A stretch of 36,524 nucleotides of DNA from a virus (Duplodnaviria > Caudoviricetes). The notes beneath the pieces were generated by a model that was given only the letters and a program-made list of their open reading frames with translations, was not told the origin of the DNA and searched no databases. A program made the position numbers and the translations under genes. Positions 9,196-15,951 of the stretch are shown in pieces (within the stretch, counting starts at the first letter, position 1; the number at the start of each line of letters is the position of its first letter). The stretch lies in the IMG/VR virus record IMGVR_UViG_3300012667_000174, positions 1 through 36,524 of that record; one strand, written 5' to 3'.

Positions 9196-9897
9196 CTATA
9201 AATTGCTTATTTTGTTATCCCCTGTTAAAGGGTAAATCATTCGTTGATACGTATTCCACCATTCATGACTGTAAGGACTGTATTGATAGTCTTTAAAGCA
9301 TGGTGTTCCTAATGTGTGATGGATTAGTTTTGCATCTTTGTTATATACGTACTCAGTTTCTAACCAATTCCATTCAACAGGTAAATCACCTATGAATCTA
9401 TCTTCAAGCCAGCTAAACCTATGAAGGTATGAGCCAGTAGATTCCATCACCAATTCCGGTGTGAGCTTTTTGTTCTGCCAATGATGACAGTTCCATAAAA
9501 TAACTGATGACCAGTTCTTTCTAGGGTAATCTTCGTTCTTAGCTCCTAAATACTTTATAGGATGCTTTGTTTGGTAATCATGCTTTACGACCCATACAGC
9601 CTTCTCAGGTTCTTGTTCAGGGTATTTAAGTAACTCAGCTACATCGCCTGTGCATATCATGTCGCCATCACAGAACACAGCAGTACCCTTGTAATCACAT
9701 AAAGAAGGGACTAGAAATCGTGAGTAGATAAAAGCATTACTGCCATCTACGTGCTTCTCTTCATAGCCCTTGAGCGTACTTAACGCTAGTGGAGTGAATG
9801 AAACTGGAATACTGCTGTGTTCGATTACGGACTGACAGAAAGCGTGATAAGCGACTGGCTCTACCTTACTATCAAATCCGACAAATATATGTAACAT
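9196..9897 (-). CDS. GT-A fold glycosyltransferase (GT8-like)
   Basis: IFVGFD, FIYSRFLVP, DxD motif FCDGDM, RKNWSSVILWN, EWNWL and HHTLGTP motifs. Confidence 0.87.
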   Translation of the reverse strand: MLHIFVGFDSKVEPVAYHAFCQSVIEHSSIPVSFTPLALSTLKGYEEKHVDGSNAFIYSRFLVPSLCDYKGTAVFCDGDMICTGDVAELLKYPEQEPEKAVWVVKHDYQTKHPIKYLGAKNEDYPRKNWSSVILWNCHHWQNKKLTPELVMESTGSYLHRFSWLEDRFIGDLPVEWNWLETEYVYNKDAKLIHHTLGTPCFKDYQYSPYSHEWWNTYQRMIYPLTGDNKISNL

Positions 9898-10343: not shown

Positions 10344-10673
10344 TTAATGTAAATTTCGTTCGCTTAACCGTGTTTGTAGGTTATCTAACGCTAAATCATA
10401 GTTTAACTCTAACTGTGTATCTGTCATTTTAACTTTCTGTCCTAAATAGACAAAGTAAATAGCATCTCTTTGTAGTCTAGGTAGGTCATCTATCACCTGG
10501 TCTACTGTACGTGCAGATGTAATGTCAATTTCTTCACCCATCTCATCAAAAGAACTAATACCACTAGACATAAATCCTGCTGCTTTACTAGGATAGCCTA
10601 AACTCTTACCTGAGTTACCCTTCATGTAGTCTTTCCATAAGTCCAAGTAGTACAAGACTTTTCCGCTATCCAT
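10344..10673 (-). CDS. Q-like late antiterminator / sigma-region-4-like regulator
   Basis: YLDLWKDYM..SLGYPSKAAGF...TVDQVIDDLPRLQRDAIYFVYL pattern; lies after rusA and before a promoter plus terminator. Start revised to the ATG at 10673. Confidence 0.7.
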   Translation of the reverse strand: MDSGKVLYYLDLWKDYMKGNSGKSLGYPSKAAGFMSSGISSFDEMGEEIDITSARTVDQVIDDLPRLQRDAIYFVYLGQKVKMTDTQLELNYDLALDNLQTRLSERNLH

Positions 10674-10827
10674 TGCTACATCCTTTATTGCATCCAGCTT
10701 GATATGCCATCCATGCACCTTGAGTATAAACATTAGCGTAAATATCTAACTCATTGTCTTTGCTTAATATAAATTTATGTTCTTTTGCCCACTTCTCAAA
10801 AGATAGTTTTATATCTTTACTCTCCAT
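10666..10827 (-). CDS. Hypothetical protein, 53 aa (not in ORF track)
   Basis: MESKDIKLSFEKWAKEHKFILSKDNELDIYANVYTQGAWMAYQAG...; overlaps both neighbours by a few nt. Confidence 0.7.
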   Translation of the reverse strand: MESKDIKLSFEKWAKEHKFILSKDNELDIYANVYTQGAWMAYQAGCNKGCSNG

Positions 10828-12866: not shown

Positions 12867-13835
12867 CTAAAATTTAATTTGCCATACACGTTCATGCTGA
12901 CTTGCTTTGTATCTCATAGAAGGAGCATCAAACCACAATGCAATCTCACCCTCCCATTCACCATGACGTTGCTTATCACATATCAACAAGCAATCAGGTG
13001 CATTTAAATCTTCATCCTTAGCCTTACCACTACGTATTAACTTCTCTTTTCTTTTATTACGCCACACGGTCATTACATTGTCAACTTGATTCGTAATGTC
13101 TGCTGAACCTGCAACATCCATCTTGTTCGGTGGACTATACTCATCTTCACCCTTACGACTATGAGCAATCAAATGAACATGAACATTTAAATCTCTTGAA
13201 GCTGCACAAAGTTTATCTAAAAACTCTTTCTGTGCGTTCATATCATCAGAACGTACACCACACTTCATCAAGCTATCAATTACAAAATGCTGTATTCCTA
13301 AAGTTTCTGCTGCATAGTAAAGAACAGCAATTACTCTATCACCATTTACAGTTCCTTGTTGGTCATACATCCATAACTTTCCATCAAGAAAATTAAAGTA
13401 ATCTCCAATAAACTGCTCTGTAGGTTTTTCAGTTCCAGTAGCTTGTCTAGTCATACGCTGTAACGTGCTATATGGGTGCATCTCAAAAGAAGCTACACAT
13501 ACTTTTATATTCTGCTGCACAATTGAGTTTATAACCTGACCAACAAGCTGGCTTTTACCATGACCATTAATACCTGACCAAAGGCTTACCTCCCCTTGCC
13601 TCATCCTAAACTGTTCAAACGTCTTATCCCACGGCAACTTAGCACCTTGCAACTGTTCATCTTTATAAAAGTAATCTACAACTTCTTCTTGGTAATCAAG
13701 TGCTGACTTCACGTTAGCCTTATCTTCTTCTCTAGCCTTCATAAACGCTTCAAAGTCAACCTTTGGTAGCATCATTCCTTGACGCTTTTGCCTGGCTTCA
13801 TCTAGTGCTATTGCACCACGCTCTAAGTTACTCAT
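12867..13835 (-). CDS. SF4 (DnaB/T7 gp4-like) replicative helicase
   Basis: Walker A GINGHGKS, SFEM, VIDSL, LIAHSRK, GSADITNQVDNV and DKQRHG motifs. Confidence 0.93.
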   Translation of the reverse strand: MSNLERGAIALDEARQKRQGMMLPKVDFEAFMKAREEDKANVKSALDYQEEVVDYFYKDEQLQGAKLPWDKTFEQFRMRQGEVSLWSGINGHGKSQLVGQVINSIVQQNIKVCVASFEMHPYSTLQRMTRQATGTEKPTEQFIGDYFNFLDGKLWMYDQQGTVNGDRVIAVLYYAAETLGIQHFVIDSLMKCGVRSDDMNAQKEFLDKLCAASRDLNVHVHLIAHSRKGEDEYSPPNKMDVAGSADITNQVDNVMTVWRNKRKEKLIRSGKAKDEDLNAPDCLLICDKQRHGEWEGEIALWFDAPSMRYKASQHERVWQIKF

Positions 13836-14238
13836 AATCTATTGCCTCTCTAATACGTTCGTAAGCAACTTCTAGCCTTTCTAAGTCAGAAGGCTCTAAT
13901 TCTTTATTTTTCTTTAATTCAAAAGCCGCCATTAATACTACCTGACATTCAAACTTAACTGCACTTAGAATATCACTAGCATAAAACTTTTTTTGTACTG
14001 GAGCTTTGTATTGCTCTATTGGCTCTGGAAATAAATCAGATAACTGTAACCCTACAGATGCAACTACATCAGAAGCAGAGCATCCTTGAAAGCAATGCAA
14101 TAATATACGACCATCAGGTTCTTCTTTAATACGTAACGCTGTAGGATTAGTTCCGCTATGTGAAGGACAGCAAGCACGCCATGAATTACGACCATGTGAT
14201 TTTACTTTTGTAAGACGTTCTAAAAGTGTATTAATCAT
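13828..14238 (-). CDS. Primase-type Zn-finger domain protein (no TOPRIM domain)
   Basis: WRACCPSH...GRILLHCFQGC...VGLQLSDLF motif; upstream of the helicase. Confidence 0.8.
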   Translation of the reverse strand: MINTLLERLTKVKSHGRNSWRACCPSHSGTNPTALRIKEEPDGRILLHCFQGCSASDVVASVGLQLSDLFPEPIEQYKAPVQKKFYASDILSAVKFECQVVLMAAFELKKNKELEPSDLERLEVAYERIREAIDYE

Positions 14239-14894
14239 ATAGCACCTGCAAATATATCATTACTACCGTTAGGACTTTCATCTTCCCATCGTGCATTGTT
14301 TATGTATGTAGAAGCCATAGGACTAAAACCACGCTTCCATCCATCAGTTTCTTTTTGCCATGCAAGCGCATCTAATACTACATTCAAATCAGGTTTATGC
14401 TTATTCCATGCTTTTATTGCTTGAGCTTTACCTGCTCTATTAGGATAAACAGACCAAAATTCATCAAATCCATCATGTATGTTTTTATCTAAACTAGCCT
14501 TACCTATACTAACCTGTGGTTCCATATTGTATACATCTTGTATACATCTTGTATCCATTGTATATACATTGTTGTTTTTTAAAGATAATTGTTCTTTATG
14601 CTCAACATAAACAGTAGGTTTATATCTATCTTTTTGAATAAGATTATGTATCTTCCAATGCTTGATTACACATACGCCAGTTTCAAATGGGATAATAAAG
14701 TTTTTAGATAATAATATTTTAAGGTCATCATCAGCACATCCAAGCATACGCTGAATCTTTTTAGCATTATTAATGAAACCATCATCATCTGCACGCATAG
14801 ATAAATGAAAGTATAAGGCTTGTGTTGATAGTGGCATATCCAGGAAAGCATCGCTATCTATGATAGTCTTTGCAAACATTCTACGTTCAGCCAT
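14235..14894 (-). CDS. Replisome organiser / replication initiator (O-like)
   Basis: MAERRMFAKTIIDSDAFLDMPLSTQALYFHLSMRADDDGF N-terminus and FDEFWSVYP...ASTYINNARWEDE C-terminus. Start revised to the ATG at 14894 (GGAG RBS). Confidence 0.88.
   Translation of the reverse strand: MAERRMFAKTIIDSDAFLDMPLSTQALYFHLSMRADDDGFINNAKKIQRMLGCADDDLKILLSKNFIIPFETGVCVIKHWKIHNLIQKDRYKPTVYVEHKEQLSLKNNNVYTMDTRCIQDVYNMEPQVSIGKASLDKNIHDGFDEFWSVYPNRAGKAQAIKAWNKHKPDLNVVLDALAWQKETDGWKRGFSPMASTYINNARWEDESPNGSNDIFAGAI
14527..14569. repeat. Iteron-like tandem repeats; putative replication origin
   Basis: TTGTATACATC x2 followed by degenerate TTGTATCCAT and TGTATATACAT, in the linker of the initiator gene next to an AT-rich tract. 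Confidence 0.65.
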
Positions 14895-14905
14895 ATTTTT
14901 ACTCC

Positions 14906-14991
14906 AAAAAAAAGCCACTAAACAAAACCCTCCAGCTTTTTAGGCTGGTTGCAGGACATCCGAGTAGGATGCAGGGCTTTGATTAATGGCT
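14906..14991 (-). ncRNA. c4/CI-like antisense RNA (three-way junction plus U-tract)
   Basis: 19-bp closing stem (14991-14973 with 14931-14913; 2 GU pairs, 1 mismatch) enclosing two hairpins. Loop CTACTC and junction CCTGCAA are complementary to upstream GAGTAG and TTGCAGG. Confidence 0.72.
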
Positions 14992-15026
14992 ACTCTAAAT
15001 TAAATCACCTGCAAGTGACAGATAAC

Positions 15027-15054
15027 ATTATACAGATTTTACAGAAAAAGTCAA
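15027..15054 (-). promoter_or_regulatory. sigma70 leftward (replication operon) promoter
   Basis: TTGACT-16 nt-TATAAT on the minus strand. Confidence 0.8.
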
Positions 15055-15153
15055 GTGTTATTTTGTAACAGTTGGCAAAGTGTAAGACTTAAATGTAATT
15101 CGTGCTAATTAAAAAAACTTATTAATCTTTACTGTTTAATTTAAAAATAAATG

Positions 15154-15181
15154 TTGACACAAGTTTCAAAGTCGATACAAT
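15154..15181 (+). promoter_or_regulatory. sigma70 rightward early promoter
   Basis: TTGACA-16 nt-TACAAT with an AT-rich upstream tract. Confidence 0.78.
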
Positions 15182-15789: not shown

Positions 15790-15951
15790 ATGAAAGAGCA
15801 ATTAATGATAAGTGTAGACGAAGCAGCAGAGCTTTTGAACGTCACACCTGCTTGGGTCAGACGATTATGTGCCAACCAGCGAATCAATGCTGTACGAGTA
15901 GGCAATCAATGGGTAGTGTTAGACTTTAACGGATATGAAAGGACTAAATAA
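15790..15951 (+). CDS. Excisionase-like HTH DNA-binding protein
   Basis: ISVDEAAELLNVTPAWVRRLCANQRINAVRVGNQWVV motif; start revised to the ATG at 15790. Confidence 0.85.
   Translation: MKEQLMISVDEAAELLNVTPAWVRRLCANQRINAVRVGNQWVVLDFNGYERTK

Follow-up and report, generated by a model that had tools for sequence, protein, structure and literature searches.

In a complete phage genome, the leader ahead of the DNA-replication genes (15019-14906, minus strand, ~115 bases) carries two target boxes followed directly by a branched antisense RNA whose closing stem ends in a U-run. The fold and both of its long-range pairings are demonstrated by covariation among related phages. The leader is real, conserved, and uncatalogued in Rfam, and it constitutes a new variant of the C4/CI-type RNA switch. 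With a probability of roughly 0.5, we read this rearranged leader as an antisense-controlled attenuator, in which pairing in cis would permit read-through and pairing with a short RNA in trans would cause termination.

Results

A structured leader at the head of the replication arm

The window, meaning the whole stretch of DNA analyzed (36,524 bases), is a complete genome with direct terminal repeats whose structural and lysis genes include those for an SU10-type capsid and portal, a terminase, and a lysozyme. Two strong promoters point apart within it. On the minus strand, a sigma-70-type promoter (TTGACT-16-TATAAT, 15054-15027) matches the consensus at 11 of 12 positions, is among the three best of 36 promoter sites in 10 kb, and has a predicted start near 15019. 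On the plus strand, a promoter scan identified TTGACA-16-TACAAT (15154-15181) ahead of a recombination arm consisting of small ORFs and genes for an HTH_17 protein, ERF, and SSB, as assigned by domain and PHROG matches. The HTH_17 protein (15790-15948, plus strand, 53 aa) is excisionase-like in a genome without an integrase, and could be a regulator. We found no ORF of at least 50 aa between the initiator start and 15294.

The minus arm begins with a replication initiator or DnaD-like loader, the first gene behind the leader (14235-14894; phrog_5708, E 5e-73; phrog_270, E 5e-16), and continues with a zinc-finger, primase-like protein (13828-14238; phrog_6088, E 2e-10; PF01807 weak and under cut-off), a DnaB-like helicase (12867-13835; PF03796, E 2.5e-9), NinB, and RusA. 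The last gene of the same run encodes a probable Q-type late antiterminator (10344-10733), with 37% identity to gp37 of phage Venkman, which is annotated 'antitermination-like'; a PF06530 search of this gene gave no match. A strong promoter (10330-10302) and a terminator (10246-10229), identified by promoter and terminator scans, follow on the same strand, an order that we take to resemble late control in lambda, just as the two-arm layout of the genome is presumably lambda-like. Late genes at 495-2332 and 9196-9897 (minus strand) encode a methyltransferase, a TPR-repeat protein, and a GT8 glycosyltransferase, possibly for virion or DNA modification.

Closely related DNA occurs in metagenomes labelled lake, drinking-water, sediment, aquatic, and soil. 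Two RNA-labelled runs contained only small shares, and none of their contigs spans 14897-15101, which is uninformative about expression. Two observations hint at the host: the capsid and Q-like proteins are 44% and 37% identical, respectively, to those of the Methylophilales phage Venkman, which itself lacks the leader motif, and one contig that carries the leader comes from a genome assigned to the same order as a Gallionella bin.

An earlier note on this DNA had read a promoter, two boxes, two hairpins, a junction, a U-run, and a ribosome-binding site from the sequence, and each of these elements is present on the minus strand at the positions it gave. The leader opens with a target hairpin that the earlier note had missed (15004-15019, 5-6 predicted pairs), which displays box 1, TTGCAGG (15014-15008), in its loop. 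Box 2, GAGTAG (14995-14990), comes next, and its last two bases overlap the base of the closing stem, P1. The two strands of this stem (5' strand, 14973-14991; 3' strand, 14913-14931) had been described as 19 base pairs; the stem is present, with 9 pairs, a U-U mismatch, and 9 pairs in the predicted fold. It encloses an antisense hairpin, P2 (14956-14972), whose loop is complementary to box 2, an unpaired 7-nt junction, CCTGCAA (14949-14955), that is complementary to box 1, and an accessory hairpin, P3 (14932-14948), that varies in length and loop. A run of eight U residues (14906-14913) forms the predicted intrinsic-terminator tail. The ribosome-binding site, GGAG (14902-14905), lies outside the folded RNA, ahead of the initiator ATG at 14894. 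The CTACTC of the antisense loop, which the earlier note had called exposed, begins with a C that is base-paired in the hairpin stem, and the final G of box 1 is likewise part of its own stem.

The predicted fold is far more stable than expected for its composition, with z-scores of -5.4 for 15019-14906 and -6.4 for 14995-14906 and 0 of 200 shuffles as good in either case. Both complements appeared in the right order in only 4 of 1,000,000 shuffles of the 37 upstream bases. The RNA has the features of an intrinsic terminator, namely a G+C-rich stem base and then a U-run, which mark it as a predicted terminator, and a simple terminator scan does not call the branched closing stem. The terminator fold has a calculated energy of -43.5 kcal/mol vs -21.4 kcal/mol for the nested anti-terminator, in which the second pairing is uncounted. 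In step-wise folding, the box 1/junction pair forms before the terminator strand exists.

Boxes and loops covary across a family of leaders

Homologues were gathered by initiator and helicase searches and by two DNA patterns in which the variable letters were left free, the second of which specified those letters of the box 1 hairpin that never vary. A structural descriptor that set no upstream condition was used to scan 387 loci and gave 172 matches, representing 93 distinct viral variants. The junction pairs with box 1 at 7 of 7 positions in 87 of these variants and at 6 of 7 in the other 6, and between the antisense loop and box 2, 5-8 bases pair in 90 variants and 4 in the remaining 3. All 93 variants have a target hairpin of 3-7 pairs and 5-9 T residues after the closing stem. 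In 84 of them, a -10-like hexamer precedes box 1 by 7-20 nt, compared to a shuffled mean of 29 and maximum of 38.

The variants contain 39 distinct combinations of box and loop, which we call codes. Nine junction types fit fully only to their own box, with 1 of 362,880 permutations as good, and 25 loop types pair over a mean of 6.0 bases with their own box 2 and 3.3 bases with foreign ones, with 0 of 100,000 permutations as good; because the variants are related, these permutation numbers do not count independent events. We also aligned 67 sequences, chosen to span the variants, with a model fitted to the nested structure and not to the box 1 pairing. Pairing is seen in 99.2% of the cells of this alignment, and two-sided changes affect 28 of its 37 pairs. 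The three variable box 1 pairs show 16, 22, and 11 two-sided changes (49 in total) and zero one-sided changes. Three of four pairs of the target hairpin have two-sided changes. In the closing stem, 100% of cells pair and 14 of 17 pairs change on both sides; the U-U mismatch column is unpaired in 55 of the 67 sequences.

A metagenome scan gave 66 matches in 120 loci, of which 52 were distinct. Of these, 31 were new and included sufficient upstream DNA, and every one of them shows full 7/7 pairing at box 1. The covariation of loops and target boxes in related phages, which the earlier note had proposed as a check, is thus strong, being seen in 39 codes and in 31 of 31 new variants. Identical scaffolds carry different codes, with a clear code change in 3 of 14 groups. 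On a tree, we counted 6.7 steps per pair for code pairs, 4.4 for the closing stem, and 7.3 and 11.3 for two hairpins. Faster change of code pairs than of scaffold pairs was therefore not seen, and the tree gives no rate signal for trans specificity.

Tandem copies of the leader were also suspected, and only a small extra hairpin was found, which stands between the promoter and the target hairpin in L082, L083, L168, L196, and L199 and recalls the tandem hairpins of c4-a1b1. In one variant (L011:289-383), the closing stem is missing the greater part of its 5' strand, either by natural deletion or by assembly error.

Searches of cultured phages gave no convincing DNA match to the leader of this genome; GenBank record MW202544.1 also carries the motif. 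When bacterial genomes were searched with one subfamily pattern (50 of 64 parts scanned), the true fold was present in 0 of 120 pattern matches. The leader fold occurs in 1 of 151 genomes of one bacterial order, which may be a binning accident. This case is a circular 37.1-kb phage contig in a bacterial bin (G117:C30, L694-L697) whose leader has its own code, and none of the 20 integrase matches of the bin is on that contig. The circular, integrase-less contig fits infection, carriage, or misbinning equally well.

A probable rearranged relative of P1 C4

C4/CI RNAs are familiar as accessory modules of temperate phages and of satellites, and C4 is a stable processed RNA of ~77 nt. Published accounts describe P4 CI as cut from its own leader and as pairing with seqA and seqC to cause termination (PMC4825925; PMC10111431; PMC3632133), and C4 as cut by RNase P, with a few changed letters separating P1 from P7 immunity (PMC5320573; PMC12197685) and with different codes on the same scaffold in the two phages (PMC5320573).

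At E 10, the Rfam C4 model (RF01695) matched neither the genome nor 501 nt of it, and it gave no match in 5 carriers; the c4-a1b1 (RF03163) and isrK (RF01394) models gave no match; the search of the C4 and c4-a1b1 models proposed in the earlier note thus came back empty, whereas the positive controls P1 and P4 scored 69 and 75 bits and matched the C4, isrK, and c4-a1b1 models. The c4-2 model (RF02944) gave no match in 5 carriers at E 1, with the control genomes silent too, and all-family Rfam scans, c4-2 included, gave no match to the leader. The c4-2 motif is a C4 relative by its authors' account, being described in PMC5737381 as probably a remote homolog of an RNA already known. In the reverse direction, a structure-aware model of the leader family did not match P1 C4, P4 CI, or int-alpA. 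Literature searches found no description of this leader; the supplements of PMC10690425 and PMC5737381, which fell outside their coverage, may list the motif without a function.

The antisense module is nevertheless similar to its counterpart in P1 C4. Both its hairpin and its junction align between the two RNAs, and the stem letters match in several variants; in L386, the stem letters are the same as those of P1 C4 on both sides and 6 of 7 junction letters are the same. In searches of five loci with a 29-column profile of the module, P1 C4 was the sole match, with a weak E of 0.062, and P4 CI was unmatched. From these sequence comparisons, a common origin of the leader and P1 C4, with a moved accessory hairpin, appears likely. 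Together with the strong covariation, this resemblance supports the earlier note's central claim of a conserved C4/CI-like RNA switch.

Our comparison used C4 (RF01695) and c4-a1b1 (RF03163) of clan CL00128 and the P1/P7 targets a1/b1 and a2/b2. As in P1/P7 C4, a long closing stem surrounds a three-way junction, the stem letters around the antisense loop are nearly identical in several variants, and that loop is followed by a 7-nt unpaired junction ending in CAA. The first target, box 1 (the equivalent of P1 a1), is likewise in a hairpin loop, and the second, box 2 (the equivalent of P1 b1), is unpaired just behind it, the two being complementary to the junction and the loop; the leader also has its own constitutive-type promoter. 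The order of elements differs, with the antisense hairpin, junction, and accessory hairpin in succession here and the accessory hairpin first in C4. Unlike C4, whose targets are ~65 nt upstream, the leader has targets that abut a closing stem that ends in a U-run and is itself a predicted terminator, and it lacks an a2/b2 target and icd/ant and precedes replication initiators. In contrast to P1/P7, no C1-like repressor or partition system was detected in the phages that carry the leader. The c4-a1b1 and isrK RNAs have two tandem hairpins before the second target, whereas the leader has one, with a second in a few variants. Like P4 CI, as described in PMC4825925 and PMC10111431, the leader is an RNA in the leader of a replication operon that is complementary to its own transcript. 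In P4, however, a seqA terminator-like hairpin lies between target and CI, downstream seqC is used, and the element integrates, whereas target, antisense, and terminator are fused here in ~115 nt in phages in which no integrase was found.

A second target in the genome is not apparent. The earlier note had pointed to TTGCAGGTG at 14251-14243, near the start of the zinc-finger gene, as a possible one. This sequence is present but is rejected as a target: it encodes the last residues of the initiator and is unchanged in L086 and L098, which have a different code; no box 2 stands beside it or beside the other distant genome copies of the 7-mer. Across the family, a downstream cognate box 1 occurs in 5 of 75 variants vs 8.2 expected from foreign codes, and never with box 2.

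Neighbouring genes vary while the leader stays

Different genes follow the leader in different phages, with the leader itself retained. Of 49 distinct first ORFs, 36 were scanned, and these comprised 19 initiator, primosome, or DnaD-like proteins of unrelated families, 4 HNH proteins, 2 ParB-like proteins, 4 members of other or unknown families, and 7 without a match. Upstream of the leader lies either a divergent arm, as in this genome, or a co-oriented gene, and Cro-like regulators accounted for 4 of 8 upstream ORFs tested. The neighbours vary on both sides, and no protein consistently accompanies the RNA. Six loci (L019, L166, L192, L205, L213, and L310) have an unknown ORF of 62-71 aa between leader and initiator, with no PHROG match for those tested, in what we take to be the place of lambda cII. 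A 56-58-kb subgroup (L175, L181, L220, and L241) has a ParB-like first gene and a Cro-like gene upstream.

Pfam searches found no match to CI, Cro, or integrase among the 56 ORFs of this genome, and six-frame searches of it found none to HTH_3, resolvase, or ParA. A tyrosine integrase or S24 domain was found in 0 of 50 carrier records, which were picked mostly for length and include 25 at >=90% completeness, and resolvase or ParA in 0 of 26 near-complete carriers. An HTH_3-like match was present somewhere in 14 of these 26, above cut-off in 4. The idea that the RNA stands in place of a repressor gene agrees with the lack of CI and Cro matches in this genome; because some carriers keep a Cro-like gene upstream, it does not strictly replace a repressor. 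Its position is presumably that at which lambda has a terminator after cro.

Other RNA designs occupy the same slot

Among the 31 closest relatives of the helicase, 5 have this leader, 18 have a two-hairpin leader, and 5 have a third, longer leader; the remaining 3 lack upstream DNA, so that 28 of 31 carry one of three self-matching designs. The second class consists of a long hairpin and a following terminator whose loops are complementary to each other, with five covarying loop pairs, and a pattern for it gave 36 distinct matches, of which 30 were this RNA, 5 were chance, and 1 was cut. Examples include L099:1248-1362, L005:2372-2493, L023:2369-2493, and L027:2367-2493, and searches of cultured phages gave no convincing DNA match to this class. 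In the third class, a pair of upstream boxes is matched by two loops of a branched RNA, with covariation at one of these loops; it also has an overlapping ORF of ~40 codons that ends at the next start, and no U-run. Examples of this class are L087:2335-2500, L109:2330-2500, and L560-L573, and the layout is P4 CI/kil-like. Neither class matched Rfam.

Rfam does identify an int-alpA RNA (RF02996), above cut-off, at L010:2403-2484 and L115:1455-1520. In L010, it directly precedes an initiator homologue, and its enlarged loop is complementary to a purine-rich stretch before the start codon. This RNA shares with the leader a three-way junction, a U-rich tail, and the slot before a related initiator, but the RF02996 model gives no match to the leader family. 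The occurrence of independent designs with the same target-then-antisense logic argues that the logic itself is selected.

Discussion

The geometry of the leader limits how its second pairing can be used. Box 2 touches the base of the closing stem and its partner loop is ~24 pairs away, and thus this pairing and the finished terminator cannot coexist in one molecule; its use must be confined to a transient anti-terminator or to contacts from one molecule to another. By the same clash, the loop of a terminated RNA is left free for another molecule. Because the anti-terminator is ~22 kcal/mol less stable, read-through must be kinetic, and because the terminator fold is so much more stable, some transcripts would stop, with a free loop.

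In the antisense-controlled attenuator that we favor, the first transcripts would engage their loop and junction with both boxes in cis, which would prevent the predicted terminator from forming, and the replication genes would then be read through. The mismatch in the closing stem may let its upper half fold while the terminator half stays open. Termination at the U-run would release short RNAs with a free loop, and by analogy with P4 CI and P1 C4, these RNAs, once accumulated, would pair in trans with the boxes of newly made transcripts and cause those transcripts to terminate. As the boxes emerge first, blocking them would remove the anti-terminator, creating positive feedback. Such a switch could provide a self-timed shut-off of replication and downstream genes and could exclude co-infecting phages of the same code, in phages that do not integrate.

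A switch that works only in cis, in which the outcome of a kinetic anti-terminator depends on how fast the polymerase moves or on a phage or host protein, without any RNA acting in trans, strikes us as unlikely. A cis mechanism would account for all of the covariation just as well, the two pairings are nested and arise in the course of step-wise folding, and we observed neither an excess rate of code change nor a second target. The module, however, resembles that of a proven trans-acting RNA family, the code pairs are strictly Watson-Crick with no wobble steps, unlike those of the closing stem, and the variable neighbours on both sides include no protein that accompanies the RNA.

The earlier note's reading, in which the trans antisense RNA by itself represses a phage that persists without integration and makes its carrier cells immune, we think quite improbable. 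P4 CI and P1 C4 are immunity factors, as stated in PMC4825925, PMC10111431, and PMC12197685; the leader heads a gene run with a likely Q-type late activator; one carrier is the circular, integrase-less 37.1-kb contig in a bacterial bin; and two of the first genes are ParB-like. Silencing the sole initiator would, however, dilute the genome, and no maintenance system is visible among the near-complete carriers (no tyrosine integrase or S24 domain in 25, no resolvase or ParA in 26). The scarcity of the fold in bacterial DNA, absent from all 120 pattern matches and present in a single, possibly misbinned genome of 151, also argues against carriage. With no maintenance genes in sight, timed shut-off and same-code exclusion by the attenuator are favored over a lasting carrier state.

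That trans pairing instead turns the genes on has a precedent in a related family, in which the short IsrK RNA does so for its own long transcript in Gifsy-1 (PMC4825925), but blocking the boxes in trans would free the closing stem, which is more stable and ends in a U-run, and the ribosome-binding site is outside the fold, making activation very unlikely here. A plain terminator or C4 relic with chance complementarity, for which the lack of an Rfam match speaks, can be dismissed given the compensatory changes in both long-range pairings across 39 codes (0 of 500 shuffles) and the odds of 4 in a million for this leader alone, unless the variants are assembly artefacts, and the motif is in a GenBank record as well.

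Beyond the antisense-controlled attenuator itself, we tentatively propose, as a possibility that is more likely wrong than right, that a large group of non-integrating aquatic phages has lost protein-based lysogeny control and runs the lytic cascade through swappable, coded RNA locks. Dozens of codes, on no fewer than three RNA architectures, share the one slot. It is possible, with the same reserve, that each code marks a group of kin, within which a resident phage shuts down the replication of later arrivals.

Rfam misses this family of leaders, and genome annotation consequently overlooks it. In this family, a rearranged, terminator-fused C4/CI form sits immediately ahead of the replication genes, in phages that yielded no integrase, CI, or partition gene. 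If the proposed mechanism is correct, the logic of antisense immunity would be used without lysogeny, to time replication or exclude kin, and if the locks are indeed coded, superinfection exclusion and timing that are based on codes and on RNA only would exist outside temperate phages. With at least 39 matched codes on one 115-base scaffold, cis vs trans action and code specificity are directly testable, and the matched set offers ready orthogonal RNA attenuators.
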